Positions 1,701 to 20,304 of a stretch of 64,000 nt of DNA are shown one piece after another; the stretch's first letter is position 1, and the number at the start of each line of letters is the position of its first letter. Location of the stretch: the IMG/VR virus record IMGVR_UViG_3300045135_001635. One strand, 5' to 3'. Source of the DNA: a virus. The position numbers and the translations under genes are program-made. Below the pieces are notes generated by a model. It saw only the letters and a program-made list of their open reading frames with translations. It was not told the DNA's origin and did no database searches.

Positions 1701-2408
1701 TTAGAAAGATGAGATATCTTCTAAAACCATTTCACGGAATTCTTCAGAGGTATCGCTCATATCAAATACATATGATACGGTACAACGCCAAGAATCTTCT
1801 GTTTCCGCTGCGTGATATAAAACTTTGTCTTGTTCAGTCCAAGAACCGAAATAAGCAGCTTTACAAGTCCACTTACCTTTAGGGTCTTCACACTTTACAA
1901 TCTCTTTTGTTTCAGGGTGAACATAAGAGAAGTGACCATCGCCACCTTCAGAATAACTGAAGATTAAGTTATATCCTGGAGCATTATGGTTGCTATGCCA
2001 CGAAATGAAGCCACCTGGAGGGTACACGGCACATAACGCATTATGCTTAACAGAAAGGAAATTCATCATTCTGGCGTTAAGGTCACTTAACTTATGTGTC
2101 AAATCACGCTTAAAGATTGGGTCTGCGTCTCTCTCAAAGAAAGTATGCGACTTATCAGCAAGCTTGAAGTTATAGCCAACAATCATATCAGGAAAGCCTT
2201 CGTGTCCAGCACCTTGGTCTTTAACATCCTGTAGATATTCCATACCCATCCAATGCGGGCGTTGGCGTTTATGTTCTTTTGCCGTTAAATGGCAATTCTT
2301 TTCGAAACCTTCAAGAGTATGTAATTTAGAATACTCATTTAAGATTTCAAGCAACTCAGGGTTATTAACCTCTACGTGCTTTAAGTATTGGTCGTTAATC
2401 TGTGTCAT
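1701..2408 (-). CDS. Putative 2OG-Fe(II)/cupin-type oxygenase
   Basis: YPPGGFISWHSN...LYHAAET..WRCTVSY layout of a double-stranded beta-helix oxygenase, with HxN in place of HxD. Confidence 0.6.
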   Translation of the reverse strand: MTQINDQYLKHVEVNNPELLEILNEYSKLHTLEGFEKNCHLTAKEHKRQRPHWMGMEYLQDVKDQGAGHEGFPDMIVGYNFKLADKSHTFFERDADPIFKRDLTHKLSDLNARMMNFLSVKHNALCAVYPPGGFISWHSNHNAPGYNLIFSYSEGGDGHFSYVHPETKEIVKCEDPKGKWTCKAAYFGSWTEQDKVLYHAAETEDSWRCTVSYVFDMSDTSEEFREMVLEDISSF

Positions 2409-3145
2409 ACGATTGGTTTATCCTTGTCTAGACCAGCCGAGAAGTGACGTAAGATAACTTCATCTTCAGGCTGAGTTCTTGCCCAGTTAAAAGCATTGTA
2501 ATAATTCCATCTTAAATCATCATCAAAGATTCCGATTTTAAGATCCTTATATTTTTCTTCTTTCTCAGTAAGCCACCATAGTGAAAATTGATCCCAACAT
2601 TTAAGGGAATCCGCATATCCTTCTGGCCACCAAGTATCATTCATTTGCTTATACGTTAGTTCCCACCAGTCTTGCATAAATTCGCGCACGATTGGTTTAG
2701 ACATATCATACAAACACACACCACCACAAAGAGTAAATTGAGCTTTACCTTCTGGCGTATCAAAATCACGTTCAGCATAAATGTAGGAGCGATCGTCAGT
2801 GAGTTCAGAGTAGACCATATCATAGTCTTTCATCTCATCCCAAACTTTAACGATATCTTCATGCTCACATTCCATATCAGCATCAATGTACATTGTTATA
2901 TCATATGGCGATTGAGCCATACCCCATAACTTAGCGCGATAATGGTCTTCACAAAAGATAACCGTATCGGCTACGTCATGACCACGTTCATCAATAAATC
3001 TTTCTTCGGTTACTAAACAAATGTTACAATCTTCGTAATAATCGCGAAGCGATTCCGCTAAGTTAAGCGCATACAAATAAAAGTTACGTTTGTGTGAACC
3101 AACGATTACAAAACCTTTGGTCTTTTCCATATTACTCATCTCCAA
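2405..3145 (-). CDS. GT-A fold glycosyltransferase
   Basis: SPYDITMYIDADM (DxD), GGVCLY, WDQFSL, RWN and late His motifs. Confidence 0.75.
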   Translation of the reverse strand: MEMSNMEKTKGFVIVGSHKRNFYLYALNLAESLRDYYEDCNICLVTEERFIDERGHDVADTVIFCEDHYRAKLWGMAQSPYDITMYIDADMECEHEDIVKVWDEMKDYDMVYSELTDDRSYIYAERDFDTPEGKAQFTLCGGVCLYDMSKPIVREFMQDWWELTYKQMNDTWWPEGYADSLKCWDQFSLWWLTEKEEKYKDLKIGIFDDDLRWNYYNAFNWARTQPEDEVILRHFSAGLDKDKPIV

Positions 3146-3578
3146 TCTGTTCTTGTAGAATCATAATTGAATATAAGTCAACTTCAATACGGCTTTTCGC
3201 ACGTCTCAGTTTAGACTTGAGTTTACGGTTTTTAGAATTCTTAATCTCTTCAACTTCAAAAGCTTCTAACTTATAGTTGAAAAGTTTCTCTAATTTACGA
3301 GCCTTTTCATGCTCGACTTCACGTTGCTTATGCTCTTCAGCTTCAGCTTTTTTACGTTCTTCACGATCAGTTGTTTCTTTATCTATTTGGGCTTCGCCAA
3401 CAGAGTCAACAACTTCGTTAAATAATTCGTTTTCGTTACCTTCTTTGTCGTGACGATTTAATTTCATCACTTGACGAGTAACACGACCAACGTCGTCTTC
3501 CATCTCTAAAATACAATTCAATTGGCTTCGGTCTTCATTTTCCCAAAACGCGTTATCTAACCATTTTCTATAGCTCAT
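3132..3578 (-). CDS. Hypothetical protein with charged coiled coil (possible fibre chaperone)
   Basis: 148-aa ORF with GGAG RBS, first gene after the giant fibre gene; function inferred from position only. Confidence 0.5.
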   Translation of the reverse strand: MSYRKWLDNAFWENEDRSQLNCILEMEDDVGRVTRQVMKLNRHDKEGNENELFNEVVDSVGEAQIDKETTDREERKKAEAEEHKQREVEHEKARKLEKLFNYKLEAFEVEEIKNSKNRKLKSKLRRAKSRIEVDLYSIMILQEQIGDE

Positions 3579-3627
3579 TTTTTATTTCTCCAGGTTTATC
3601 AAATCAAGCAAAAGTATATAGTAATAA

Positions 3628-3656
3628 AATAAAAGGGGATATTCCTTTATCCCCTT
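3628..3656 (-). terminator. Intrinsic terminator after the giant fibre gene
   Basis: Stem AAGGGGATA/TATCCCCTT followed by a T-rich tract on the minus strand. Confidence 0.7.
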
Positions 3657-3685
3657 ATTATACAACATTCCTTAATCTATATCAA
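3657..3685 (-). promoter_or_regulatory. sigma70 promoter TTGATA-17-TATAAT
   Basis: Near-consensus hexamers with 17-nt spacing; overlaps the stop codon of the giant gene. Confidence 0.65.
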
Positions 3686-6600
3686 GAAATTCGTACATAT
3701 AATGTGTAAGTTTCTACAATTGAGAATGTAGGTTGTATTGTTGTTCCAACGTAGTTACCTACGAAAGCACGCGAATAGTTACCAACATAATCTCTCGCAT
3801 AGTTACCTACGAACTCACCAACATAATTACCGACATAGTTACCAGCATATGAAGATACGCGAGTTCTTGAGTAGTTATCTGTGTAAGCACTTGTACGTAA
3901 ACGTGAGTAAGCTGAAACACGAACTCGACTAAACGTATCAGTTGAGTTACGAGTATATTCACCAACGAAACCACGTGTGTAGTTACCGATGAAATCGCCT
4001 ACGAAGTCACGCGCATAGTTACCGACATACTCGCCAGCAAATCCACGAGTGTAGTTACCAGTAAAGTCACCAGCGTAGTTACGAGCATAGTTACCGATGA
4101 AATCACGAGCAAAGTTACCAGTGAAAGTACGGTTATATGTGCCAGTATATTCGCCAGCAAAACCACGTGAGTAAGTACCTGTATATTGACCAGAGAATCC
4201 ACGTGAGTAAGTACCAGTGTACTGACCAGAGAATCCGCGAGTGTATGTACCAGCATACGAACTTGGACGAGTTCTTGAATAATACTCAAAACGTGTGCGT
4301 AAGAAGTTACGTGAGTAATTTCCAACGAAGTCACGAGAGTAAGTACCAGTGTACTGACCAGAGAATCCGCGAGTGTATGTACCAGCATAAGTGCTAAAGC
4401 GTGAACGGTTGTAAGTACTAAAACGAGCACGAACAAAGTTACGCGAGTAATTACCAACATAATCACGTGAGTACGCACCAGTATATTCGCCTACGAAGCC
4501 ACGTGTATATGTTCCAGCATAAGTGCTGAAGCGAGCGCGGTTGTAAGAGCTTACACGGTTACGAGAGAAGTTACGTGAGTAATTTCCGGTATATGAGTTA
4601 GCATATGTGCCTGTATATTCGCCTACGAAGCCACGTGTATACGTTCCTGCGTAAGTACTTAAACGAGTACGAGCATAAGCAGATACTCTTGAACGAGTAT
4701 ACGCACGAGCATAGTTACCTGTATAAGTTGTCGCATATGTACCAGTATATTCACCAACGAAACCGCGAGCGTAAGTACCAGCATATGAACTTGCGCGTGA
4801 ACGAGCGTAAGCAGATACTCTTGAACGAGTATACGCACGGGCATAGTTACCTGTAAACGTACGATTATATGTTCCAGTATATTCGCCTACGAATCCACGG
4901 CTGTATGTACCAGCATATGAACTTGGACGTGAACGAGAATAAGCAGAAACACGAGTGCGAGTATAAGCACGAGCATAGTTACCAGCGAAAGCACGTGAGT
5001 AAGTACCAGTATATTGACCAGAGAATCCACGGCTATAAGCACCAGTGTATTGTCCAGAGAATCCACGGCTGTATGTACCAGTGTACTGACCAGAGAATCC
5101 ACGAGTGTAGTTACCAATATAGTTACCAGCAAAGTTACCAACGTAATTACCAATGAAGTTACCAGCATAGTTACGTGCGTAATTACCTGTATACGTTCTT
5201 GCATAGTTACCTACGAAGTCACCAGTAAACGTTGTTACACGGTCACGAGCATATGTGCTGTTACGAGTACGAGCGTATGCAGAAACACGTGTACGAGCGT
5301 AAGCACTGTAACGAGTACGAGCTGAAGTACGAGCGTATTCACCAACGAAGTTACCTGCGTATTCGCCAGCATATCCGCGAGCATAGTTACCTACGTAAGA
5401 CGCATTTCTTGTACGAGCATAAGCACTATAACGAGTTCTAGTCGAAGTACGAGTACTTAAACGAGTAAAGTCGCCGACATAGTTTGTTACACGAGTACGC
5501 GAGTAAGCTGAGTAACGAGTACGAGTAGAAGTACGAGTACTTAAACGAGTAAAGTCGCCAACATAGTTTGTTATACGAGTACGAGCGTAAGCGCTGTAAC
5601 GAGTACGAGTAGAAGTACGTGTTGATAAACGAGTATACTCACCAACAAAGTTACCTGTAAACGTAGTGACGCGATCACGGATGAAGTCGCCAACATAGTT
5701 TGTTATACGAGTACGCGAGTAAGCTGAGTAACGAGTACGAGCTGAAGTACGAGCTGATAAACGAGTATATTCGCCAACAAAGTTACCCGTAAACGTAGTG
5801 ACGCGATCACGGATGAAGTCGCCGACATAGTTTGTAATACGAGTACGCGAGTAAGCTGAGTAACGAGTACGAGCTGAAGTACGAGTACTTGTACGCGCAT
5901 AGTTACCAACAAAGTTGCCAGTGAAGTTTGTTACACGGTTACGAGTAAAGTCGCCGACATAGTTTGTAATACGAGTACGCGAGTAAGCTGAGTAACGAGT
6001 ACGTGTAGAAGTTCTTGTAGAAGTTCTTGCGTAGTTACCAACGAAGTCACCTGCGTAAGAACCAGTACGAGTATAATAACCAGTATTAGTTGAAGTACGT
6101 GTAGAAGTACGCGCATATTCACCTACGAAGTCACCTGCGTAGTACAATGGACGAGCATAGTTACCTGTGTAATATAATGTACGAGCGTAATTACCAACAA
6201 AGTTACCAGCATATACTAATGTACGAGCATAGTTACCTGTGTAATATAATGTACGAGCGTAATTACCAACAAAGTTACCAGCATATACTAATGGACGAGC
6301 ATAGTTACCAGTATAGTAAGCTGTACGAGCGTAATTACCAACAAAGTCGCCAGTATAGACTAATGTACGAGCATAGTTACCAGTGTAATACAATGTACGA
6401 GCATAGTTACCAGCGTAAGAAGCAGCGCGAGTACGAGTATACGTTGGATAGTAAGCACGATCACGAGCATACGTTGGGTAGTAAGCGCGTTCACGAGTAT
6501 ACGTTGGGTAGTAAGCACGATCACGAGCAAAACCTCTTTCTACAGCACGAGATCTTGTAAAGTCTGGATAGTAAGCACGATCACGAGCATACGTTGGAGC

Positions 6601-9600
6601 TGCGTGACGAGCACGAGTATATTCTAAGCCATAAACTCTATATCGAGCATATGTTGCTGTTCTACTGTAATATGCTGTACCAACAAAGTTACCAGTAAAG
6701 TAAGCTGTTGACGGCCAACCAGGATCTCCGCCCCAAGCTTGATAAGTATATGATCTTGTACTTGTACGAGTAGAAGTCCCTGTACCAGCATATGCTAATG
6801 TACGAGCATAGTTACCAGTATATGTCCCAGTACGAGTGTAATTACCTGTGTAATAAACGTTACGAGAATAGTTACCAGTGTAGTAAGCTGTACCGATATA
6901 GTTACCCGTAAAATATCTTGTACCGACAAAGTTACCAACATAATATCTTGTACCGGCATAATCGCCAGTGTAATAAGCTGTACGAGCATAGTTACCTGTG
7001 TAATATAATGTACGAGCATAGTCACCAGTATACGAAGCAGCACGGTCACGGGTATACGTTGGATAGTAAGCACGGTCACGAGCATAAGTCGGTGACGTTG
7101 TGTAGTCTGTGATACGAGTACGGGCATATGTCGGATAGTAAACACGACCACGAGTGTACGTCGGTGACGTTGTGTAGTTTGTTACACGGTCACGGGTATA
7201 CGTTGGATAGTAAGCACGGTCACGAGCATAAGTCGGTGACGTTGTGTAGTTTGTTACACGGTCACGGGTATACGTTGGATAGTAAGCACGGTCACGAGCA
7301 TAAGTCGGTGACGTTGTAGAAGTTCTTGTAGAAGTTCTTGCGTAGTTACCAACAAAGTCTCCAGCATAGTACAATGTACGAGTATATGCTAATGTACGTG
7401 TTGAAGTACGCGTAGAAGTACGAGCGTATTCACCAACAAAGTCTCCAGCATAATTACCTGCGAATCCACGAGCATAGTTACCAACAAAGTCGCCAGTAAA
7501 TGTCGTTGCGTAGTTACCTACGAAGTCACCAGCATAATCTGTGATACGAGTTCTTGCGTATTCACCAACAAAGTTACCAGCATAATTACCTGCGAATCCA
7601 CGAGAATAGTTACCAACAAAGTCGCCAGTAAATGTCGTTGCGTAGTTACCAACAAAGTTTCCTGCGTAATCAGTGATGCGAGTACGAGCATAATTACCAG
7701 TATATTCACCAGCAAAGTTACCAGCATATCCACGAGAATAGTTACCAACAAAGTCGCCAGTAAATGTCGTTGCGTAGTTACCAACAAAGTTTCCTGCGTA
7801 ATCTGTGATACGAGTACGAGCGTAATTACCAGTATATTCACCAGCAAAGTTTCCTGCGTATCCACGAGCGTAGTTACCAACGAAGTCGCCTACGAAATCG
7901 CGAGCGTAATTACCAGTATATTCACCAGCAAAGTTTCCTGCGTATCCACGAGCGTAGTTACCAACGAAGTCGCCTACGAAATCGCGAGCATAGTTACCTG
8001 TGTAATCACCAGCAAAGTTTCCTGCGTATCCACGAGCATAGTTACCTACGTAAGAAGCACCACGTGTACGAGCATAAGCTGAGTAACGAGTACGAGCTGA
8101 CGTACGTGTTGAGGTACGAGCATAATTACCAACGAAGTTACCAGCAAAACCACGAGCATAGTTGCCTACGAAGTTGCGTGAGTAATTTCCAACGAAGCCA
8201 CGAGCATAGTTACCAATAAAGTTACCAGCATAATCTGTGATACGAGTTCTAGCAAAAGTAGAAACGCGCGCACGAGAGAAAGCACCAGCAAAGTTAGTAA
8301 CACGATCACGAGTATAGTCTGTTACACGAGTACGACCATAATCAGCAGCGTATACAGAAACACGGTTACGTGAATATGTACCAGAATATGTGCTGATACG
8401 GTTACGTGAATATGTACCAGAGTAAGAAGAAACACGTGTTCTTGAGTAAGTACCAGCATAAGCTGAAACTCTTGAACGAGTAAAGTTACGTGAGTAATTT
8501 CCTAAGAACGAACGGCTGTAATTTCCAATGAAGTTACGAGCATAATTTCCGCTATACGTTGATATACGAGTACGAGCATATGTACCAGCGTAAGATGAAA
8601 CACGACCACGAGTAAAGTTACGTGAGTAATTACCTGTAAATCCGCGTGAATAGTTTCCTACGAATTGACGAGCATATGTTCCAACATAAGTTGATACGCG
8701 TGTACGAGCATATGTGCCTGTAAATGTAGAAACACGACCACGAGTAAAGTTACGGCTGTAATTACCAGTAAATCCGCGAGCATAGTTACCTACGAATCCT
8801 CGAGAGTATGTACCTGCGTAAGCAGAAACTCGTGTGCGAGCATACGTTCCAGAAAACGAGCTTGGGCGTGTACGAGTAAATTCACCAGCATAGTTCCCTA
8901 AGAAACCTCTTGTGTAGTTACCTACGAATTGACGAGCGTATTCACCAACATAAGTTGATACACGTGTACGTGAGTAAGTGCCAGAGAAAGCGCTTGTACG
9001 AGTACGTGTAAATTCGCCAGTATAGTTACCTACGAATTGACGAGCATAGTTCCCAGCAAAGGCACGAGCGTATTCGCCAGTATACGTTGAAACACGGTTA
9101 CGCGAGTAAGTACCAGAGAAAGCACTTGTACGAGTACGAGTAAATTCGCCAGCAAAATTACCAGTAAATGAACGAGCATAGTTACCGATGAAGTCACGTG
9201 AGTAATTACCAGTATACGTTGATACACGTGTACGTGAGTAAGTTCCAGTATACGTTGAAATACGGTTACGTGAGTAAGTACCAGTGTAAGTAGAAACACG
9301 GTTACGTGCGTATGTACCAGCATAAGCTGAAACACGACCACGAGCGTAAGTAGAAGGACGAGTGCGAGTAAAGAACCCAGCAAAGTCTGTAATACGGTTA
9401 CGAGTATAAACTGATACACGGTTACGTGCGTATGTACCAGCGAATACACCAGTAAACGCTTCTAAACGGTTACGTGTATAAGAAGAAATACGAGTACGAG
9501 CATAGTTACCGACGAAATCGCCAACGTATTCTCCCGCAAAACCTCTTGAATAGTTACCAGCAAAATCACGAGTGTAATTACCAACGTAATCACCAATGAA

Positions 9601-10485
9601 ATCCTGAGTAGTTGTACGCGTTGAAGTACGCGCGAACGCCGAACTACGTGTGCGAGCATAAGAAGAAACACGAGCACGAACATATGAACTGTTACGTGTA
9701 CGAGTGTAATCTATTTGCGCAGTAGTGCGTTGTGTATTGATTGCTGTACCTACAGCTTTCCAAGTTCCGGCATCAGTCGGTGCACCTTGCGCACTTGACC
9801 TTAATTGATATGAACCGATATTACCTGAAGTAGCACGTAGAGTTTTGATACGTTGACCCAATACTTCTTGGATCTCGTTATCTGTCATTTCTTGGAAACC
9901 GTCAAAGCCAGAACCGTCATAGCGGATCTTAACTGGACGAGTTGGGTTTACAACAGTCATTGCTGTACGAACCCAAATGTGGTAGTTTGTTACGCTTCCG
10001 TCACCACGTGTATCAGTGAATACATTCTCAATAAAGATTGTATAGTCTGAACCAGGAGTTGAAGATGCTAACTTGTATGTACCGATATAGTCATTTTCGA
10101 CCATATTTCCAAGAACACGATTAGCGAGGTTTGTTAAATCTTGGTCTACCATTTCGTAGAAACCAGGATTGTCACCTGCTTCGTAGTAACCCACAGGAAT
10201 GTTTACGCCACTTTCTACAGAAGGACCAGCAACTTGTTTTAGTGTGGTTGTTGTAGTTCCAGAAGTAATCTGTGATGCTGGGTGTGTACCAGTAGATTCG
10301 TTGAAAAATGTATCAACGTAAGTACCGACAGGAACACCAGCTGATAAAGTCAATGCGCCTACATCAGTAGGACTTAACATTGCTTGACCAACAGCATAAG
10401 CCAGATAGTTTTCTTCTAGTGGAGTGAATTCCTTCAGGTCACCATTCGAATTTAGTATTTTTAAAGGGATACTAGATGCTGACAC
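3682..10485 (-). CDS. Giant (2267 aa) Arg/Tyr/Gly/Thr-rich tetrapeptide-repeat virion fibre, predicted single long beta-hairpin
   Basis: GTG start with RBS and late promoter; about 255-aa globular N-domain, then about 1990 aa of [YFRS]-x-[GRST]-x tetrads mirror-arranged about WGGDPGWP; C-terminal strand ETYTLYVRIS. Confidence 0.8.
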   Translation of the reverse strand: MSASSIPLKILNSNGDLKEFTPLEENYLAYAVGQAMLSPTDVGALTLSAGVPVGTYVDTFFNESTGTHPASQITSGTTTTTLKQVAGPSVESGVNIPVGYYEAGDNPGFYEMVDQDLTNLANRVLGNMVENDYIGTYKLASSTPGSDYTIFIENVFTDTRGDGSVTNYHIWVRTAMTVVNPTRPVKIRYDGSGFDGFQEMTDNEIQEVLGQRIKTLRATSGNIGSYQLRSSAQGAPTDAGTWKAVGTAINTQRTTAQIDYTRTRNSSYVRARVSSYARTRSSAFARTSTRTTTQDFIGDYVGNYTRDFAGNYSRGFAGEYVGDFVGNYARTRISSYTRNRLEAFTGVFAGTYARNRVSVYTRNRITDFAGFFTRTRPSTYARGRVSAYAGTYARNRVSTYTGTYSRNRISTYTGTYSRTRVSTYTGNYSRDFIGNYARSFTGNFAGEFTRTRTSAFSGTYSRNRVSTYTGEYARAFAGNYARQFVGNYTGEFTRTRTSAFSGTYSRTRVSTYVGEYARQFVGNYTRGFLGNYAGEFTRTRPSSFSGTYARTRVSAYAGTYSRGFVGNYARGFTGNYSRNFTRGRVSTFTGTYARTRVSTYVGTYARQFVGNYSRGFTGNYSRNFTRGRVSSYAGTYARTRISTYSGNYARNFIGNYSRSFLGNYSRNFTRSRVSAYAGTYSRTRVSSYSGTYSRNRISTYSGTYSRNRVSVYAADYGRTRVTDYTRDRVTNFAGAFSRARVSTFARTRITDYAGNFIGNYARGFVGNYSRNFVGNYARGFAGNFVGNYARTSTRTSARTRYSAYARTRGASYVGNYARGYAGNFAGDYTGNYARDFVGDFVGNYARGYAGNFAGEYTGNYARDFVGDFVGNYARGYAGNFAGEYTGNYARTRITDYAGNFVGNYATTFTGDFVGNYSRGYAGNFAGEYTGNYARTRITDYAGNFVGNYATTFTGDFVGNYSRGFAGNYAGNFVGEYARTRITDYAGDFVGNYATTFTGDFVGNYARGFAGNYAGDFVGEYARTSTRTSTRTLAYTRTLYYAGDFVGNYARTSTRTSTTSPTYARDRAYYPTYTRDRVTNYTTSPTYARDRAYYPTYTRDRVTNYTTSPTYTRGRVYYPTYARTRITDYTTSPTYARDRAYYPTYTRDRAASYTGDYARTLYYTGNYARTAYYTGDYAGTRYYVGNFVGTRYFTGNYIGTAYYTGNYSRNVYYTGNYTRTGTYTGNYARTLAYAGTGTSTRTSTRSYTYQAWGGDPGWPSTAYFTGNFVGTAYYSRTATYARYRVYGLEYTRARHAAPTYARDRAYYPDFTRSRAVERGFARDRAYYPTYTRERAYYPTYARDRAYYPTYTRTRAASYAGNYARTLYYTGNYARTLVYTGDFVGNYARTAYYTGNYARPLVYAGNFVGNYARTLYYTGNYARTLVYAGNFVGNYARTLYYTGNYARPLYYAGDFVGEYARTSTRTSTNTGYYTRTGSYAGDFVGNYARTSTRTSTRTRYSAYSRTRITNYVGDFTRNRVTNFTGNFVGNYARTSTRTSARTRYSAYSRTRITNYVGDFIRDRVTTFTGNFVGEYTRLSARTSARTRYSAYSRTRITNYVGDFIRDRVTTFTGNFVGEYTRLSTRTSTRTRYSAYARTRITNYVGDFTRLSTRTSTRTRYSAYSRTRVTNYVGDFTRLSTRTSTRTRYSAYARTRNASYVGNYARGYAGEYAGNFVGEYARTSARTRYSAYARTRVSAYARTRNSTYARDRVTTFTGDFVGNYARTYTGNYARNYAGNFIGNYVGNFAGNYIGNYTRGFSGQYTGTYSRGFSGQYTGAYSRGFSGQYTGTYSRAFAGNYARAYTRTRVSAYSRSRPSSYAGTYSRGFVGEYTGTYNRTFTGNYARAYTRSRVSAYARSRASSYAGTYARGFVGEYTGTYATTYTGNYARAYTRSRVSAYARTRLSTYAGTYTRGFVGEYTGTYANSYTGNYSRNFSRNRVSSYNRARFSTYAGTYTRGFVGEYTGAYSRDYVGNYSRNFVRARFSTYNRSRFSTYAGTYTRGFSGQYTGTYSRDFVGNYSRNFLRTRFEYYSRTRPSSYAGTYTRGFSGQYTGTYSRGFSGQYTGTYSRGFAGEYTGTYNRTFTGNFARDFIGNYARNYAGDFTGNYTRGFAGEYVGNYARDFVGDFIGNYTRGFVGEYTRNSTDTFSRVRVSAYSRLRTSAYTDNYSRTRVSSYAGNYVGNYVGEFVGNYARDYVGNYSRAFVGNYVGTTIQPTFSIVETYTLYVRIS
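3742..9708 (-). repeat. 12-nt-periodic coding repeat array with nested 30/36/72/84/132-nt tandem units
   Basis: Visible tandem units, e.g. 72-nt units at about 6130-6420 and 7030-7320, and 132-nt units at about 5620-6000 and 7450-7830. Confidence 0.9.
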
Positions 10486-10521
10486 TTTAATCGCTCTCTT
10501 TTTAAATTAATAGGATGAGTT

Positions 10522-10529
10522 TATTTATA
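10522..10529 (-). promoter_or_regulatory. T4-type late promoter TATAAATA (giant fibre gene)
   Basis: Exact consensus 37 nt upstream of the start codon. Confidence 0.8.
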
Positions 10530-11201: not shown

Positions 11202-11951
11202 TTATTCTTGTGCGAGTAAAACTGCGCCCCAATTCGTATAATAATTTATTCTTGTTTCGCTAGAATTTGGATCATTATAATAAGTAGTCCAAACGTTCTG
11301 AGGTGCTGAAAAATTTTGATACGTATAATCTATATATTGTGAATAATAATCACCATTTGAGAAAAATGTGGATACTATACCTGCCATATTATAACTATAC
11401 GTAAAATATTCTATTTTAGACCAATCAAACTGAATCCAATCATTTTTATTAGTAGTTATTCTAGATATATCACCGCTACCATAACCACTCATAGAGTTAT
11501 GTGGTTTCAATGATGTAACTTGTAATTTAGAATTTACTTTTATAGTTCTACTATCAAAAGAAACTTCATTACCTGAAGTAAGAACTTTTAATCCATAATC
11601 TCCTACTGGTGTAACTTTACTCGCTAAATCTAATACATAATAATCTAAACTAATATTACTAAAATCAGCTTCCAATGGATATTTTTTATTACCAGAAGAT
11701 TTAAACGTTACAGAAGATAAAGTGCTGTCGTACTCTATAACTATATAATCTTTTTGATAGTTGCTTGTATTTCTATGTTTCGGTTTTATAAAAATTAATC
11801 TAGTTCTATTAGGATCAGTTCCAAGTCCAGTGATACTACTACCAGTACCTTTTTTTGTCACAACATAATTCACTAAACCTATCGTAGTGTCTATTTGTAC
11901 AATTTCATTTCCTGCTGCATCGAAAGATTTTACTTGTAATCCATATGACAT
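11202..11951 (-). CDS. Tail-tip/fibre-associated structural protein (duplicated YGL-x-V motif)
   Basis: MSYGLQV... and DYGLKV..GNEVSFDSR repeats, like proteins that follow gpJ-type tips. Confidence 0.55.
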   Translation of the reverse strand: MSYGLQVKSFDAAGNEIVQIDTTIGLVNYVVTKKGTGSSITGLGTDPNRTRLIFIKPKHRNTSNYQKDYIVIEYDSTLSSVTFKSSGNKKYPLEADFSNISLDYYVLDLASKVTPVGDYGLKVLTSGNEVSFDSRTIKVNSKLQVTSLKPHNSMSGYGSGDISRITTNKNDWIQFDWSKIEYFTYSYNMAGIVSTFFSNGDYYSQYIDYTYQNFSAPQNVWTTYYNDPNSSETRINYYTNWGAVLLAQE

Positions 11952-12736
11952 TATGAAATCCTCACTGCTGTTACTTTTATTGTGACCGAAGTACTACTAC
12001 TATTAGTTATTGTAAGCGTATCACCAGAAGTTGAAAACGATATAAAATCAGACCTAGCTGTAGTTGAATATATAACTTTACTAGGATCACTTACATCTTT
12101 TATAGTAAGTGACACCGAACCATTCCCAGCAATATTTTGACTCGATAAATGCGCTAAGTTAAATAACTTAGTTTGTGGGTTAATTATTTCAGTTACACCA
12201 TCTGGACCATATACAACTAAACCATATTCAGCGTCAGAGCCTGAAGCAACATAAGTTGGACCAGAACCACTACCACCTGAAATCGTTCTTGTATATGTAC
12301 TTGTTCTGGTATAGTTTCTCGTATAGTCAGCAATATAGTTACCGATATAATCGCTAGAATATGTTCCAGTATAGTTACCTAAGAAATCTCTGGTATAATT
12401 ACCAATGAAATTACCAAGATAACTTCTGGTATATGTTCCAGTATAGTTACCGAGATATTCTCTTGAATAATTACCTGCGAAAAATCTTGAGTAATTACCG
12501 ATGAAATTTCCAGTAAAATCTCGGGTATAGTTACCGACATATCTTTCTTCACGAGGATCCGTGCGGTATCCAGCGTAAGATGATATTCTAGTAGAAGTAG
12601 CACCTGAATAATATGCCGTAAAAGATCTAGAACTTGTGTGCGTATCTCTTGTAAATGTTGCAGAGCTACCTACACCAACACGAGTAAGCGTACGAGTGTA
12701 TGTACTTTGTCTTGTATAACTTACTATTCTTGCCAT
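11951..12736 (-). CDS. Structural protein with short Y/F-x-G-N / Y-x-R repeat segment and C-terminal YGL domain
   Basis: Same tetrads as the giant protein, DPRE turn, ends VRIS like the giant protein. Confidence 0.65.
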   Translation of the reverse strand: MARIVSYTRQSTYTRTLTRVGVGSSATFTRDTHTSSRSFTAYYSGATSTRISSYAGYRTDPREERYVGNYTRDFTGNFIGNYSRFFAGNYSREYLGNYTGTYTRSYLGNFIGNYTRDFLGNYTGTYSSDYIGNYIADYTRNYTRTSTYTRTISGGSGSGPTYVASGSDAEYGLVVYGPDGVTEIINPQTKLFNLAHLSSQNIAGNGSVSLTIKDVSDPSKVIYSTTARSDFISFSTSGDTLTITNSSSTSVTIKVTAVRIS

Positions 12737-12746
12737 TATCTATCCC

Positions 12747-13208
12747 TTATTCAATAGCAGTTCCACCACCAGTGAAGAATGAAGTTCTTCCTTCAATGGT
12801 GCGAGCATAGGTTGATTCTCTTGTAAAACTTGTGCCGTAATATGCGGTAGAAGTAACGGTAAAGTACTCCGTTCTTACTTTGCTATAATAAGCGGTAAAC
12901 GATACTAATTTGTAAGTTGATTCTGTGAAGAACGCAAATGTCTCGCGAGTGTATGCCGAAGTACGGTCTACTAATTTATCACGAGTGTATGTACTTTCAC
13001 GGGCGCGAGTAAAATCTCTTGAGTAGTTACCGACGTAAGTATTTTCGCCATCTACAGTACTCGTACTCGTTCTATCAGTAGTATACTCGCCAGCATAATT
13101 TTTAGAGTAAGTACCGTCATAACTACCTGTGCGAGTTTTTACAAAATCGCGAGTAGATATAGCGGCGAAATCCAACACACGTGTAAATGATAAAGTATAA
13201 TCAGCCAT
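12747..13208 (-). CDS. Small Thr/Tyr/Arg-rich beta-repeat structural protein
   Basis: YAGEY, YVGNYSRDFTRARESTYTR tetrads related to the giant protein. Confidence 0.6.
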   Translation of the reverse strand: MADYTLSFTRVLDFAAISTRDFVKTRTGSYDGTYSKNYAGEYTTDRTSTSTVDGENTYVGNYSRDFTRARESTYTRDKLVDRTSAYTRETFAFFTESTYKLVSFTAYYSKVRTEYFTVTSTAYYGTSFTRESTYARTIEGRTSFFTGGGTAIE

Positions 13209-14982: not shown

Positions 14983-17900
14983 TTACACCGCCAACGCTAT
15001 AGTTCTGAAATCGGTAATAATAGGAACTTTACTTGAATTATTTGATTTCATAACAAGTTTAGTTTGGAATATACTAAATTGATCGACCGCTTCTATACTA
15101 TATGAATATTCTCGTATTACTTCACGACTTTCGTCGCTCGGAACTTGAGCGTCTATATCAACCTTAATCCATTCAGCTACATCTAATGATGAATCATCCT
15201 GAGCAGTTTTAACATAAACTTCAAACTGAGCAGCGCTCGGGCGATGAGCAGAGAACAATATTTTAAGTCCTTCAGCAGCTTCATCTAAAATTACAGGAGT
15301 TGTAATATGTTGAGCAGCGTCAGACATATCTATAACGTTTTCTATCGTCATTACAGAAGTACGCTGTAAGTCAATTAGAGGAGATACTTTAGTATCAGTT
15401 GTTGATAATGTTATAACAAATTCCATATCTTCTGGATCAGCCACGATAGTCGGGCGATCATTTAGATTTGAATCGTTAAGGAATACCTGCTTAGAAGCAA
15501 CCGAAGAATAAGAGTTATTATACAATGGGTTGTTTCGATTACCGCCGTAAGAAGCACCAGAAGTTTGGCGAACTTTAGCTGTAACGCTAGTACCATTTGG
15601 AATGATATTTGCGATATTAGGAATAATCTCATCAATCATAATTTGTTCATTTACGACAACCTGATCTCCACCGCCTAATACAGATGATGTAGCGATTGTA
15701 CCAGCGTTAATTCTATATCCGTCCCAAGAGACACTCGCGATAAGATGATTACCGTTAATGCTTGATGCGTCTACTCCACCAATAGTACCTTGTACGCCTG
15801 ATATTTCAACTTCATCGTTAGCATTAAATCCGTGACCTTGGTGAGCAATATGAACTAATGCGCTATCGCGTTCAACGGAAATAGGATCTGCTCCAAGAGT
15901 AATCTTAGGAACTTCAACGTTAGATAGAACAACGTTAGCCGAAGATTCAAATGACGCGCAATATAATTCAAACATCAAGTCTTTAGTTTGATCGGCTGTC
16001 CAAGTAGAACCATTCTGAGATAAGAATAGAGATCCAAGGGTTGGTTGTTTATTAACGCGACCTTCACGTCTATTAGGACCGAGAATGAATTCATAAGTCT
16101 CAGCTACATATGCGTTATACTTAACAGATTCAGCCAATAGTACTACCGCATATTCCTCGCTCGGCGATAAGTAGACTGGTTCATCAAAGTGTATATCAGT
16201 ACCGCCTTGAGATCTAACATCAGCAATATCAGTTTGATCTGTTAATGGCGTGATATTAATATCAGAAGGTGATACAAATTTAGAAGAACCAGGAACCAAA
16301 CGTGTTGTCGGGATACCATTTTCTACTGGGCGAATTTGTACTTGTAAAGGTATAGTATCATCTTTACTTTCCATAAAGATTCTTACTTTAGATAAGTAAA
16401 TTCCGTTTGGATTTTCTACCTGATCAACATAAAAAGTTTGAGCTAGTGGATCGTAACGTTCCGTAATACTTTCTACGATACGTGTTGAACGAATAGTTCT
16501 TTGAACAGTATCAATACGTCCTACAGATTCGTACATAGCACGTGAAGAAGCAATAGCGTTATCATCATCATTAACTACAATATCAAGTAGTTTAAATTCT
16601 TGTTGTCCTGTACGGAATGATAAGTTTGTTGTATTCGGTAAGAAGAACGAACCGATTAACATACCGTTTTCATCAGTTACCAAATCAGTATTTCCGTTCG
16701 GGTGACTCGTAGCATTAGAAAACTCACTTCCGTATTCTTTAGGATTATCCGAGAAATGCTTGAATCTATTTTCTTGACGAACCCAATCTTGTACTGGTTT
16801 GTTACCGAAGAAAGCAAACATATTAGTATTAGGACGTAATCCTTCAACGCGGAAGAATATTTCGCGAGAACGCATAAATGGAACTACTTCAACATTTAAA
16901 ACTTGTTCGCCTAAGAACTCTTGAATAGATCTTTCGACAACACGAGTCCGAATACGTTTTCCTTTAGTGATAGATCTGTTATCAGTACGTACTCTACGAA
17001 TATTGTTTTGCATAATATCAGGGAGTTTACGAACTTCTACCCATTCATCAGAAGAAGGAGATAACGTCATATGACCAGTTTGAGTAATAACCGCAAATGG
17101 GTTAACATTCATCTTCCCTGTCGCTAATAACTGAGAAGCCATAACTTCGTCAGTATAAGGAATAATAGCAACGTCGCCTTGCTTACGAGCTGTAGAGTTA
17201 GCTCTCATTGATAAGCGAATAGAGTTCTCTCTAAACGAAGGCATTAGCTCACCATTAACAGGCTCAACCGAAGCGCGATAATCAGGATTACTAAGATCGC
17301 AGAAGTTTAAGCTGTTAAAGTTATCCGCAATAAACCCAGATTTAGTTCGGTTATTTCCATTCTCATCCAATACCATAAGAGAAGCAGTATCAGTTTCAAG
17401 TAAACTAAGTGTCGTCAATTCATAAAGTTCTTCAACACGTTCTTCCAACTTAGCGATATCTTTCATAGTGAAACGCTTATGCGGAATCTTAGTTAACGTA
17501 AGATCTGTTTTGTCTAAGGTGTATGCGTTTAAATCAAACTGGAATAAAGGTAATGAACCAGTCGGAATTTGAGGAGGGCGTGGATCTAATGACGACTCAC
17601 CCTTAATTAGTTGTAAGCGACCAGTACCAATTCTACCCTTAGCGTCTAATGTATTAGCAACAAGAGTGTCGATACGAGGTAGGTAATATGTAGCGTCTAC
17701 GCTAATAATGCTCTTGTTTTTAGGGAGTGAATTAATACTTCCTGTATCTATCCCAGAAGGTAAAATTACTGGACGGAAATCAAGGACATCCGTTAATGAG
17801 ATTTCGGCACCCGACGAACTCTTATATGTAGGGATTAATCCGTAGTCTTGAGGATATGATTCAACACTGAAGTAATCTCCGTCTCTATGATAGAAGTGAG

Positions 17901-20304
17901 AGAATTGTACCGTGTATGTAGAGCCTACTTTAGCCGTAAGACCAGATTTAAGTCTTATTTTAATTGGTCCGTAGAAGTTATCTCTTTGTCCACCATCAAA
18001 CTCAAAAGAAGCTGTAACATTAGTACCACTATCGTCTACAACAGAAAGTAATTCAATACCGTCCGCGTAATTAAGTTCAATTAAAGAAGCGTCCGATGTA
18101 CTGTTTGCTAATGCTTGACGAGATATTTCATAATAGGTGAAACTTCCGTTTCCGCTAATATCTCCGCCTTGAGTATATGTTCCTGTATAAGAACTCGTGC
18201 GAGTCCTAATATATGAAGATGAGCGAGTATATTCGCTCGTAAAGTTTCTAGTTGACGGGTTTTCAGAAATAAATTGTCCAGTAACCGTGCGCGTAAAATC
18301 TAACCAAACAGGTTCTCTAGGATTGCCCCCTTCTCTTGCGGATACAACAGTTCTTTCCCCTGTATAAGAAGCAGCATAGCTACTTGATCTGGTGTTCGAA
18401 AAGGTTAAAGTTCTTGAGTAGTTTCCAACGAAGTCTACATATGTCGTATTTGTAAACGTCTTAGCGAACGTTGAAGGAACTGTTGGAGTTTGAACACTTC
18501 CGCGAGTGTATTGATACCCTTCAGCGTTTAACGTGGTAATATTACTTGCGCTTGTCGCGATCATCTCGCCGTTCCAGATAATACTCACCGCACCAGTATT
18601 ATCATCAACACGCCACATCGTTTCACCTTGAGTGAAGATTGGTCCTTCTATAGGAGCTGCGCCAGAGCCTAACGTTACATTCTCTGTTACCGTAGCGATA
18701 CCTTTCTCTCTTACTACAGGAGAAGGAACAGCAAAGTAATATGTTATAATATATGCTGTTGATGGAGATAGTCCTACAATCTTATTAAGAGAAACGTTCC
18801 AACCAGTAGCAACGCCAACACCAACTTCAAATATAACAGGGTTGTATGAAGCATCCATAGTTTCAGGAATAAATACTTCTCCCGAAGCGTCCGAAGAAAC
18901 TTCAATTGTACGTTGAGCTGAATAATTAGTATCAGTTATCGCTTGAGGACGTGGATTAGATAAATGGAATAATAATGAATTATCAATACCGCCTAATAGA
19001 CCAGAAGGTTTAACTGTAACAGAACCATTAGCTCCTGTTATTGTAGTAACTTCTCTGAAACTAGAACCGATATCCATCTGAACATTAAATAAGTATAAAC
19101 GATATTCACCGCCAACGTTTTCAATACCACGTACATTAGCTGTACCGATTCCGCTCAAACTTACTTGCCCGAACGTAGTTAGTTCTGAAATCCCTGTACT
19201 TAATGTTTCATCAATAACAACATAGTTACCGTATTGAGCAATTACGCTGTCGTTGTTTAGGCTGTCTGTTTCTCGAGCCTTTTCTAAATCTATATTTGTC
19301 GTACCGAAGTCTAAGCGATATCCGTCAACATAAGCAGTTCCAGGAGTTACTTCTAAATCTAAATTAAGGTCGTCTTTTTCATTAAGTACAGTTTTAAATT
19401 CTTTGGCTACATAGTCACCAGATTCTTCTTTTGTACGAGTAGCAAGTAGATCATTAATGATGTTATATGCGTCGTTAGTTTCAACTTCGCGAGTAATAAC
19501 ACCGTCAACTATACGCGCAACGAATACGAAGTTTTCTTCTTCTTGGACTTCATTTCTTGTTGTAGGAGTAAGTTCGATTTTAAATCTATGAGCACCAGGA
19601 GAAGAAGTATTTGGAAGATCTCCTTGGTTATCAAATAGCCCTTCGTCTTCACTCTCAGTGATAATAGTTTCTACTATTTTAAATCCGAAGTCTACAGTAG
19701 GTGTTGAGCTATACATATCAATATAAACTGACTGTTGTTCAACTTGTACAAAGTGGCCATGTACGAAGAATACACCTTCGCTGATTGAGATAATCGTTCC
19801 TGTACCAACAGCTGGAATAGTATCGTCGCTTGCTACAGTTAAAGGAAAGGTTGTAGAGCCGACAGGAGTTAATGTTTGATTTGACGTAACGCGTGGCGCT
19901 TCTTCTGAATTAGATAAAGCAGTTGTATCTGTATATTTTACGATAAGTGTTTGCGGTGAAGTATCTGTAGAAGGGTGATACTCTTCAATTAAGAATTTAA
20001 CACCTTGACTATTTTGGTATTCTTTCCCTACAATATTATCTGGTACATTACTGTTTGTTTGTAGTCTAATATATTCTTTAGAATTATCGACCATAGAACC
20101 GCCAGCGTGAACCATAGCACCTTCTTTGAAAATGTTACGTCCAAATTGAGCCAGTTCTTCATGAAAGATAGACTGTAACTCATTTAGTTCTCGAGCTTGA
20201 AGAGCTTTACCAGCATTAAATAATACTCGATGATATCCGTTTGTTTTATCGAAGGAATCTCGATATGTTTCTTTAAATGTTTTACTTGTAAAATTAGTCA
20301 TCAA
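14983..20304 (-). CDS. Large virion structural protein, DUF4815/VrlC-like
   Basis: YHRVLFNAGKALQARELNELQ, PGAHRFKI, RTKEESGDY, RFTMKDIAKLEERV, KSGFIADNF, DPLAQTF, GSLFLSQNGSTW motifs. Confidence 0.85.
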   Translation of the reverse strand: MMTNFTSKTFKETYRDSFDKTNGYHRVLFNAGKALQARELNELQSIFHEELAQFGRNIFKEGAMVHAGGSMVDNSKEYIRLQTNSNVPDNIVGKEYQNSQGVKFLIEEYHPSTDTSPQTLIVKYTDTTALSNSEEAPRVTSNQTLTPVGSTTFPLTVASDDTIPAVGTGTIISISEGVFFVHGHFVQVEQQSVYIDMYSSTPTVDFGFKIVETIITESEDEGLFDNQGDLPNTSSPGAHRFKIELTPTTRNEVQEEENFVFVARIVDGVITREVETNDAYNIINDLLATRTKEESGDYVAKEFKTVLNEKDDLNLDLEVTPGTAYVDGYRLDFGTTNIDLEKARETDSLNNDSVIAQYGNYVVIDETLSTGISELTTFGQVSLSGIGTANVRGIENVGGEYRLYLFNVQMDIGSSFREVTTITGANGSVTVKPSGLLGGIDNSLLFHLSNPRPQAITDTNYSAQRTIEVSSDASGEVFIPETMDASYNPVIFEVGVGVATGWNVSLNKIVGLSPSTAYIITYYFAVPSPVVREKGIATVTENVTLGSGAAPIEGPIFTQGETMWRVDDNTGAVSIIWNGEMIATSASNITTLNAEGYQYTRGSVQTPTVPSTFAKTFTNTTYVDFVGNYSRTLTFSNTRSSSYAASYTGERTVVSAREGGNPREPVWLDFTRTVTGQFISENPSTRNFTSEYTRSSSYIRTRTSSYTGTYTQGGDISGNGSFTYYEISRQALANSTSDASLIELNYADGIELLSVVDDSGTNVTASFEFDGGQRDNFYGPIKIRLKSGLTAKVGSTYTVQFSHFYHRDGDYFSVESYPQDYGLIPTYKSSSGAEISLTDVLDFRPVILPSGIDTGSINSLPKNKSIISVDATYYLPRIDTLVANTLDAKGRIGTGRLQLIKGESSLDPRPPQIPTGSLPLFQFDLNAYTLDKTDLTLTKIPHKRFTMKDIAKLEERVEELYELTTLSLLETDTASLMVLDENGNNRTKSGFIADNFNSLNFCDLSNPDYRASVEPVNGELMPSFRENSIRLSMRANSTARKQGDVAIIPYTDEVMASQLLATGKMNVNPFAVITQTGHMTLSPSSDEWVEVRKLPDIMQNNIRRVRTDNRSITKGKRIRTRVVERSIQEFLGEQVLNVEVVPFMRSREIFFRVEGLRPNTNMFAFFGNKPVQDWVRQENRFKHFSDNPKEYGSEFSNATSHPNGNTDLVTDENGMLIGSFFLPNTTNLSFRTGQQEFKLLDIVVNDDDNAIASSRAMYESVGRIDTVQRTIRSTRIVESITERYDPLAQTFYVDQVENPNGIYLSKVRIFMESKDDTIPLQVQIRPVENGIPTTRLVPGSSKFVSPSDINITPLTDQTDIADVRSQGGTDIHFDEPVYLSPSEEYAVVLLAESVKYNAYVAETYEFILGPNRREGRVNKQPTLGSLFLSQNGSTWTADQTKDLMFELYCASFESSANVVLSNVEVPKITLGADPISVERDSALVHIAHQGHGFNANDEVEISGVQGTIGGVDASSINGNHLIASVSWDGYRINAGTIATSSVLGGGDQVVVNEQIMIDEIIPNIANIIPNGTSVTAKVRQTSGASYGGNRNNPLYNNSYSSVASKQVFLNDSNLNDRPTIVADPEDMEFVITLSTTDTKVSPLIDLQRTSVMTIENVIDMSDAAQHITTPVILDEAAEGLKILFSAHRPSAAQFEVYVKTAQDDSSLDVAEWIKVDIDAQVPSDESREVIREYSYSIEAVDQFSIFQTKLVMKSNNSSKVPIITDFRTIALAV

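Follow-up and report, generated by a model that had tools for sequence, protein, structure and literature searches.

A giant fibre protein of a T4-like marine phage whose two 993-residue arms appear to pair with each other

The stretch of virus DNA analysed here, IMG/VR virus record IMGVR_UViG_3300045135_001635 (64,000 nucleotides (nt); hereafter the window), encodes on its minus strand a 2267-residue protein in which two repetitive arms of 993 residues each follow a non-repetitive base domain. We find that one arm read forwards is complementary to the other read backwards in a single gap-free register, i+j=2505, and antiparallel pairing of the arms in this register is well supported by the sequence. 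The chain most likely zips onto itself, much as an RNA stem-loop does. We favour arm pairing because the register is unique, because tandem arrays on the two arms match, and because insertions and deletions (indels) in relatives match between the arms without any symmetry in the DNA; it is the only explanation we have found for all three. Our whole reading, to which we assign a probability of roughly 0.7, is that of a fibre with a base domain, self-paired 993-residue arms, a Gly-Gly turn, and a C-terminal strand that returns to the base.

The fibre gene and its repeat

The gene and its signals are laid out below, with all coordinates given in the window and protein positions in amino acids (aa).

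3682-10485, minus strand: whole gene for the 2267-aa fibre protein, with a GTG start and the stop codon at 3682-3684; the largest open reading frame of the region
10522-10529, minus strand: T4-type late-promoter motif TATAAATA, 37 nt 5' of the GTG start, read directly from the sequence
about 10494-10498, minus strand: purine-rich ribosome-binding site GAGAG before the start
9709-10485, minus strand: base domain, aa 1-259, non-repetitive, kept in 359 relatives, beta-prism/MABP-like at middling Z
6730-9708, minus strand: N arm, aa 260-1252 (993 aa), with F, Y, W, R and G on a single, unbroken residue parity
6712-6735, minus strand: tip WGGDPGWP, aa 1251-1258, unique, with the mirror axis between G1252 and G1253 (nt 6729/6730)
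3751-6729, minus strand: C arm, aa 1253-2245 (993 aa), of opposite parity, complementing the N arm at i+j=2505
3685-3750, minus strand: C-terminal tail, aa 2246-2267, ending in ETYTLYVRIS; motif kept in more than 100 relatives, strand position predicted
3625-3654, minus strand: terminator-like, GC-rich hairpin GGGGATA...TATCCCC with a T run, just 3' of the stop codon, read directly from the sequence

Beginning at aa 260 and ending at 2245-2248, the repeat draws on little besides T, Y, R, G, A, S, N, F and V and places an aromatic at each fourth position. Its 1986 residues include 276 Arg and 88 Asp plus Glu (net charge +188) and a single His; Lys, Cys and Met are absent. An earlier note, made from the letters and open reading frames of the window, had described a mirror-complementary repeat of about 1990 aa behind a late promoter. 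The repeat is confirmed as two arms of 993 aa in a gap-free register, its mirror symmetry proves stronger than the note had claimed, and the promoter corresponds to TATAAATA, for which the known T4 late-promoter consensus suggests this role. The note had also placed the centre of symmetry in WGGDPGWP, which holds, and more exactly on the Asp of its Asp-Pro, which does not. The Asp codon does lie at 6724-6726, but the axis falls between the two glycines, 1.5 residues away.

A single mirror register relates the two arms

Pairs of residues (i, C-i) were tallied at 2400 values of C, 396 of which are in phase, such that aromatics coincide. The register i+j=2505 (1-based numbering) is the sole outlier among these 396 (composite z = 5.2). 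There, 121 of the 993 pairs are R:G, against a mean of about 63 per 1000 elsewhere, and only 3 are R:R, against a mean of about 37 per 1000. The arms align at this register from tip to base with zero gaps over the 993 pairs, and the scan brought out no other sharp antiparallel register. We shuffled the C arm 1000 times for each of three block sizes (4, 12 and 44 residues), and none of the 3000 shuffles matched the observed values. Shuffles of 4-residue blocks gave 66±6 R:G pairs (maximum 86, or 95 across the three block sizes), 42±4 R:R pairs (minimum 30, or 18 across the three block sizes), 23±4 F:R pairs and a mutual information of 0.64±0.02, where the arms themselves give 121, 3, 61 and 1.05, respectively. 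Scored along the anti-diagonal against shifted registers and shuffled tetrads, as the earlier note had recommended, the pairs are thus enriched at i+j=2505 only.

Of five independent N-arm blocks that were each compared with the whole C arm (722-867 antiparallel registers per block), four rank the global register first and one ranks it fourth. The difference in density between Arg and Gly (R minus G) along one arm is anticorrelated with that along the other, with r = -0.66 at the mirror register (z = -5.8). Near the tip, eight 10-residue units had been said to face another eight, and these are seen in the printed alignment.

Some simpler sources of such a signal were considered and rejected. 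Coincidence of aromatics alone is uninformative, as every fourth register scores alike. Parallel registers reach a mutual information equal to that of the mirror register, but they do so through the identity of homologous repeats (R:R, G:G), and none of them spans both arms. A DNA palindrome is likewise rejected as the cause; as had been claimed, no inverted repeat joins the arms, the only two present being chance repeats of 17-19 nt. AT and GC skew keep the same sign across both arms.

A pairing code on both faces

Taking the other in-phase registers as the expectation, the favoured pairs at i+j=2505 are Tyr:Tyr (87 versus 52 expected), Phe:Arg and Arg:Phe (31 and 30 versus 9 and 11), and Gly:Arg and Arg:Gly (65 and 56 versus 35 and 28), while Arg:Arg (3 versus 38) and Phe:Phe (3 versus 13) are avoided. 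The partners of the 276 Arg residues are Gly in 121 cases, Phe in 61, Ser in 45, Tyr in 25 and Arg in 6; 61 of the 122 Phe residues face Arg and 6 face Phe. The Arg-Gly pairing proposed earlier is therefore borne out, as is Arg-aromatic pairing where the aromatic is Phe, but the latter does not extend to aromatics in general, since Tyr pairs with Tyr.

Pairs that lack F, Y, W, R and G, and thus lie on the other face, also covary at i+j=2505 and at no other register (z = 5.2). That both faces covary at one register fits lateral neighbours in a sheet. The parity of F, Y, W, R and G is constant along each arm and switches once, at the centre, and neither arm holds an odd-length indel in its 993 residues. 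Across the arms, Arg lies diagonal to an aromatic more often at +2 than at -2 (188 versus 132), and the reverse is true of Gly (76 versus 145), an asymmetry of the kind that a twisted antiparallel ribbon would give. The mirror axis is flanked by the pairs W1251:D1254 and Y1248:W1257, and its position in the sequence implies a putative two-residue Gly-Gly turn.

Mirror-matched tandem arrays

Tandem Repeats Finder marks arrays with periods of 10, 12, 24, 28 and 44 residues, which we mapped from one arm to the other by i -> 2505-i. Each of seven N-arm arrays meets a C-arm array of equal period and near-equal copy number at the mirrored place.

12-aa arrays: N arm aa 378-431 (4.4 copies), C arm aa 2077-2115 (3.2 copies)
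44-aa arrays: N arm aa 413-546 (3.0 copies), C arm aa 1967-2096 (2.9 copies)
44-aa arrays: N arm aa 544-679 (3.1 copies), C arm aa 1814-1961 (3.4 copies)
8450-9248, minus strand: these two 44-aa N-arm arrays together, about 6 copies, aa 413-679; mirror falls at aa 1826-2092
4200-5045, minus strand: the two 44-aa C-arm arrays together, about 6 copies, aa 1814-2096; partners of 8450-9248
7817-8050, minus strand: 28-aa N-arm array, 2.8 copies, aa 812-890; mirror falls at aa 1615-1693
5411-5652, minus strand: 28-aa C-arm array, 2.9 copies, aa 1612-1692; partner of 7817-8050
7417-7963, minus strand: 44-aa N-arm array, 4.1 copies, aa 841-1023; mirror falls at aa 1482-1664
5552-6012, minus strand: 44-aa C-arm array, 3.5 copies, aa 1492-1645; partner of 7417-7963
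7041-7317, minus strand: 24-aa N-arm array, 3.8 copies, aa 1057-1149; mirror falls at aa 1356-1448
6146-6412, minus strand: 24-aa C-arm array, 3.7 copies, aa 1358-1447; partner of 7041-7317
6842-7029, minus strand: 10-aa N-arm array, 6.3 copies, aa 1153-1215; mirror falls at aa 1290-1352
6428-6621, minus strand: 10/20-aa C-arm array, 3.3 copies of 20 aa, aa 1289-1353; partner of 6842-7029

The paired arrays are unrelated in sequence. As no inverted repeat in the DNA links the arms either, the symmetry exists in the protein only.

Relatives and matched indels

A search of public genomes and metagenomes with the N-domain (expectation value (E) up to 0.001, 1.84 billion representatives) returned 359 relatives, counted as cluster representatives at 50% identity and ranging in length from 397 to 3893 residues. 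The C-terminal motif ETYTLYVR(I/V)(A/S) ends 107 of 159 sequences by regular expression and several more by eye. In all relatives a base domain is followed by a tetrad arm, a variable centre, a second tetrad arm and a conserved tail, and the conserved N-domain and C-terminal motif around a variable repeat are the defining features of the family. The architecture had not been recognised from any described family, and this stands: the fibre protein has no match in Pfam, PHROG, NCBIfam or the PDB sequences, literature searches found no description of the family, and a search of the ESM Atlas returned unnamed viral clusters only. Among 50,697 phage records, one, Phage C48C1, carries a homologue. 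In short relatives such as P0062, blocks of Arg type face blocks of Gly type. Other members use different repeat chemistries, with Asn, Lys and Gln in P0006 and P0008 and strongly acidic FILDTDYEGDF units in P0012, and thus it is the period of four that is conserved and not the charge.

The C48C1 homologue (WJE88074.1; OQ984149, filed under Kyanoviridae) is annotated as a hypothetical protein of 3347 aa. Its N-domain is 63% identical to that of the window's protein, and the two have tetrad vocabulary, C-terminal motif and gene neighbours in common. Its inner arms (856-1280 and 1384-1808) also select one register, which scores 160 against 14 for the next (z = 6.3). Farther out the register shifts by 315, which equals the length of a globular insert carried by the returning arm, and resumes with 567-851 facing 2128-2412; the N arm switches parity exactly opposite this 315-aa insert. 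The outermost segment, 3253-3326, finds its best partner in 265-338, at the base. We also observe that this homologue (L001 12001-22044) has a globular centre and five globular inserts, all of them in the returning C arm and none in the outgoing one, and that three of the five resemble a repeated domain. In P0003 to P0005, precomputed Pfam annotation marks PF14312 and PF13385.

The best comparative evidence is given by three C48C1-like relatives with inner arms 86-89% identical (P0002, P0004 and P0005), whose N arms and C arms we aligned separately. P0002 and P0004 differ by a single 44-residue gap in each arm. Between P0002 and P0005, the N arm has gaps of 14, 28 and 14 residues, and the C arm has gaps of 14, 28 and 14 within 3-12 residues of the mirrored sites. 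Each indel in one arm is therefore matched by an equal one at the mirrored site of the other, and arm lengths, whose constant equality the earlier note had put forward as a test of homologues, are thus kept equal indel by indel. When each C arm is read through the register of its own protein, identity between the C arms is 87-90% rung for rung. Double substitutions at paired positions number 39 against 15.5 expected, an excess that regional rate differences could inflate.

In 30 of 116 relatives, the conserved Trp and Tyr anchors set the very register that scores best for the 44 base-proximal pairs, and this is the mode of 41 possible offsets. The R-minus-G density axis lies within 8 residues of the midpoint in 16 of 115 relatives, which lends support but only weakly, given how many relatives make no use of Arg. 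Automatic segmentation of arm lengths in 35 relatives gave no correlation (r = -0.18) by a method that is unreliable, as it calls Arg-rich, aromatic-poor stretches 'gaps', one of them in the window's own protein; P0070, scored as 456 versus 54 residues, has by eye an irregular centre around an anchor midpoint of 566. Gly occurs in the central dipeptide of about 15 of 35 short relatives by our own count, which is suggestive only. A central Asp-Pro was rejected as a feature of the family (4 seen versus 3.5 expected).

Predicted structure of the base and C-terminal strand

AlphaFold2, run with a 39-sequence alignment on the 476-residue relative P0062, gives a base domain with a predicted local distance difference test score (pLDDT) above 90, a long strand at 240-270, and a C-terminal strand at 442-474 (pLDDT 77-98 over the last 27 residues, 450-476); the middle is of low confidence. 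Compared by VIA-align 2 through its last residue, the model resembles beta-prism/MABP structures, namely 8b6v_A (Z 7.4, root-mean-square deviation (rmsd) 3.8, 121 aligned), 2qp2_A (Z 6.7, rmsd 3.6, 117 aligned) and 3tow_A (Z 6.0, rmsd 3.5, 114 aligned), at Z values below 8 that may mean a common arrangement only. Foldseek found nothing in the PDB at E 0.001 or better for this model or for that of the central fragment described below.

In the window's own protein, an ESMFold2 complex of aa 1-304 with aa 2201-2267 scores 0.92, compared with 0.00 for the best of 3 controls. Of 80 solved complexes, 58 attain this mark, as do 2 of 110 mismatched pairs, counts that are only rough here because we used our own alignment. 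Contact agreement among runs is at least 69% and partner pLDDT at least 56. The contacts of lowest error (242 with 2263-2265, 244 with 2262, 248 with 2260) fall at i+j = 2505-2508, the anti-diagonal of the repeat itself, and the C-terminal strand is modelled between base-domain strands 223-229 and 240-248. The C-terminal strand is thus predicted to return into the base domain, where the model supports its binding.

A proposed folded-back fibre and its alternatives

We propose that this protein serves a divergent T4-like marine myovirus as a fibre of the virion. The chain would leave its 259-residue base domain, run outwards for 993 residues, turn at the Gly-Gly of WGGDPGWP and run back for another 993, with its last strand, ETYTLYVRIS, inserting into the base domain. 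Paired exactly at i+j=2505, the arms would make up a single antiparallel beta-ribbon of two strands. One face would be a zipper in which Tyr meets Tyr, Phe meets Arg, and Arg meets Gly or Ser, with Arg lying diagonal to an aromatic ring of the opposite strand; the other would carry small residues (T, S, A, V, N, D), likewise specifically paired. Arms bound to such a register would have to gain and lose tandem units in matched pairs, and the length of the fibre could therefore vary with base and tip fixed. In relatives, the middle of the sequence and bulges of the returning strand carry globular domains that are probably receptor-binding. We infer the hydrogen-bonded pairing of the strands and the extended shape, and likewise a role in host adhesion with the middle of the sequence at the far end of the fibre, the latter because of the gene's position in its cluster and the lectin-like or other globular domains in the centre or returning arm of relatives.

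More tentatively, the paired arms may make one continuous two-stranded ribbon of about 990 rungs, 200-330 nm long (about 330 nm if fully extended at 3.3 Å per residue), held together by the Y:Y, F:R and R:G code and evolving like a nucleic-acid stem through compensatory indels and substitutions. We regard this specific form as possible rather than probable.

Several observations weigh against our main reading. Over its 990 residues, a lone two-stranded ribbon would leave both edges free, and some further association must therefore be present. The central block of the N arm is less register-specific than the others, ranking the global register 8th of 892, and in the outer 470 residues some parallel registers are also R:G-complementary (0.08 versus 0.10). 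Some relatives, P0070 among them, have no gap-free R:G register. The ESMFold2 complex is confident only for 240-266 against 2238-2267, and the first 40 rungs of the arms are uncertain. Finally, AlphaFold2 run without an alignment on aa 1052-1453 (402 residues) gave a mean pLDDT of 51, a disordered centre and no long hairpin; it shows local strands of 16-18 residues (pLDDT 70-89) in the 20- and 24-residue arrays, and Foldseek finds faint likenesses of this pLDDT-51 fragment to beta-solenoids (9u4u, E 0.13; 3suc, E 0.17; 3p4g, E 0.5). The earlier note would have taken a local structure as a refutation, but this local-strand model is too weak to support or seriously contradict a hairpin.

The same local strands, one of 16-18 residues in every 20 or 24, would suit a different shape, in which the hairpin is real but its ribbon is wound into a compact two-start beta-solenoid of about 20-24 residues per rung. 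Rungs of the N and C arms would alternate, and the fibre would measure about 40-50 nm (about 45 nm at some 22 residues per rung). Such winding would satisfy the free edges without oligomerisation, the array periods of 10/20, 24, 28, 44 (2x22) and 12/36 all suit a rung of about 20-24 residues, and the register scan has secondary score maxima at ±44. These maxima are, however, expected from a 44-residue repeat anyway, the model behind the local strands is of low confidence and was made without an alignment, and the solenoid matches are not significant. The rung length would also need to vary along the fibre. Unbroken dipeptide parity over 993 residues suits continuous strands better, although solenoids of even period keep parity too. 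On balance we consider a wound ribbon unlikely.

Considerably less probable still is pairing between chains, in which the N arm of one subunit would pair with the C arm of another in a domain-swapped antiparallel dimer or oligomer, each C-terminal strand lying in the partner's base. Phage fibres are usually oligomers, and neither the complementarity nor the two-chain complex model can tell pairing within a chain from pairing between chains. The mirror axis, however, falls on a unique Gly-Gly flanked by aromatics, a classic tight-turn sequence, relatives carry a compact globular domain at the centre, and a swapped dimer would have base domains at both ends and make a poor attachment fibre. We favour pairing within the chain because the Gly-Gly axis is flanked by Trp and Asp and because the C-terminus is predicted to come back to the base domain. 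A local beta-meander or solenoid within each arm, with the mirror a by-product of repeat history in class-palindromic units (YxGxYxRx), draws on the local AlphaFold2 model and on octads whose palindromy by residue class puts many registers in phase, but it is highly improbable given that complementarity occurs at just 1 of 396 in-phase registers, that R-rich, G-free N-arm arrays lie opposite G-rich C-arm arrays, that the R-minus-G densities are anticorrelated at the mirror register, that the DNA has no palindrome, and that indels matched in size and mirrored position lack a mutational explanation.

Comparison with known architectures

The nearest known architecture to the folded-back fibre that we propose is the gp37 needle at the tip of the T4 long tail fibre (PDB 2XGF), which Bartual et al. 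are reported to have described in PNAS in 2010 and which is reportedly a trimer of about 15 nm with six strands around His-coordinated iron ions. There, too, the chain runs out to a tip and back, with the far end in the middle of the stretch and the two passes as antiparallel beta-strands, although the fibre here is known from sequence statistics and models and its strands are predicted; the needle's tip bears the receptor-binding part, to which the far end of our fibre may be likened. Topology is therefore in common, whereas sequence, iron sites, scale and code are not: the proteins have no sequence match, the arms here are 993 residues long, a single His in 1986 residues rules out the series of His-x-His iron sites, and the fibre has an explicit pairing code and an N-terminal domain of its own that would close the loop. 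For a six-stranded homotrimeric tube, akin to the thin gp37-like barrel that the earlier note had suggested, the scan offered no sharp antiparallel register besides i+j=2505.

Aromatic cross-strand ladders are known from trpzip peptides and OspA-based mimics, which are designed or short segments of 12-40 residues. As in these single-layer sheets, aromatics here would face one another across one face of a two-stranded antiparallel sheet and stabilise it without a hydrophobic core. Unlike them, the proposed ladder has about 990 rungs, belongs to a natural protein and includes F:R and R:G pairs. The triple beta-helix of the T4 gp5 C-terminal domain and of gp12 (octad VxGxxxxx) intertwines three parallel chains and needs no mirror symmetry. 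It resembles our fibre in its even-period Gly repeat, in Asn or Asp after Gly and in strict in/out alternation, but the antiparallel complementarity of N arm and C arm has no counterpart there, and the Gp5_C repeat (PF06715, VxGxxxxx) gave no Pfam match at E up to 0.01. By analogy, RNA and DNA stem-loops obey the same positional rule, i with C-i, around a unique loop, and show compensatory indels and double substitutions; the polymer differs, and the code here is statistical rather than strict and reflects side-chain packing preferences instead of base hydrogen bonds. We regard the protein as a new family and, probably, as a novel form of folded-back beta-fibre.

Repeat proteins are thought to grow by tandem duplication under local constraints only. 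Here, two halves that lie far apart in one chain keep an exact register along 993 positions, and the natural relatives grow or shrink only through matched indels, a protein equivalent of the compensatory changes seen in RNA stems. We know of no protein for which such an exact long-range register, maintained through compensatory indels, has been reported. The roughly 1000 rungs also provide a cross-strand preference (Y:Y, F:R, and R:G or R:S, avoiding R:R and F:F) that could be tried out in designed hairpins or nanofibres. If true, a 990-rung ribbon would be the longest beta-hairpin known, in a natural protein of tunable length that retains its fold. The work also delimits a large family of fibres, unannotated so far, in uncultured marine T4-like phages. 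In our reading, the host-facing end of the fibre is encoded mid-gene with both termini at the virion, which affects searches for receptor-binding domains in metagenomic phages.

Genomic setting

The gene had been assigned to a fibre module, and it does lie among baseplate and fibre genes. Upstream on the same strand are a tail-fibre assembly chaperone (Phage_tail_APC, E 8e-15), a 519-aa fibre with a tail-tip domain, a collagen-like fibre and baseplate wedge genes. The gp6-like wedge protein shares 47% identity with its counterpart in Phage C48C1 and about 33% with those in Pelagibacter phage HTVC008M and Synechococcus myoviruses, which places the genome among marine T4-like myoviruses as a divergent member.

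The fibre gene is followed immediately downstream by four genes on the minus strand (3132-3578, 2405-3145, 1701-2408 and 1270-1620), whose products are 77, 84, 69 and 68% identical to those of C48C1 CDS0202-0205 in the same order. They are better conserved with respect to C48C1 than the base domain of the fibre (63%) or the gp6-like wedge (47%). The 246-aa product has a sub-threshold match to Glycos_transf_2 (E 0.017, around a DxD region) and the 116-aa product a weak LtfC-like match (E 6e-4). The four proteins could be folding or modification factors for the fibre.

Two small proteins of 261 and 153 aa, encoded on the minus strand at 11951-12736 and 12747-13208, use the tetrad vocabulary of the fibre (YVGN, FTGN, YTRD, RTST), and their tblastn matches are only to the repeat arms of the giant C48C1 protein. 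The 261-aa protein consists of an Arg/Ser/Thr-rich N-terminal part, a DPRE segment, about 85 aa of Gly-type tetrads and a globular C-terminal part with a VRIS end. These proteins may contribute further strands to the giant ribbon or fold into small hairpins by themselves.

The gene at 14983-20304 (minus strand), which separates the fibre cluster from the wedge genes, encodes a 1773-aa protein that matches phrog_358 (function unknown) over nearly its full length (E = 0). The 830-aa collagen-like tail-fibre protein encoded at 23027-25519 (minus strand) matches dozens of PHROG fibre families (best E 4.5e-190), and its gene explains a GC-rich stretch at 24-26 kb.

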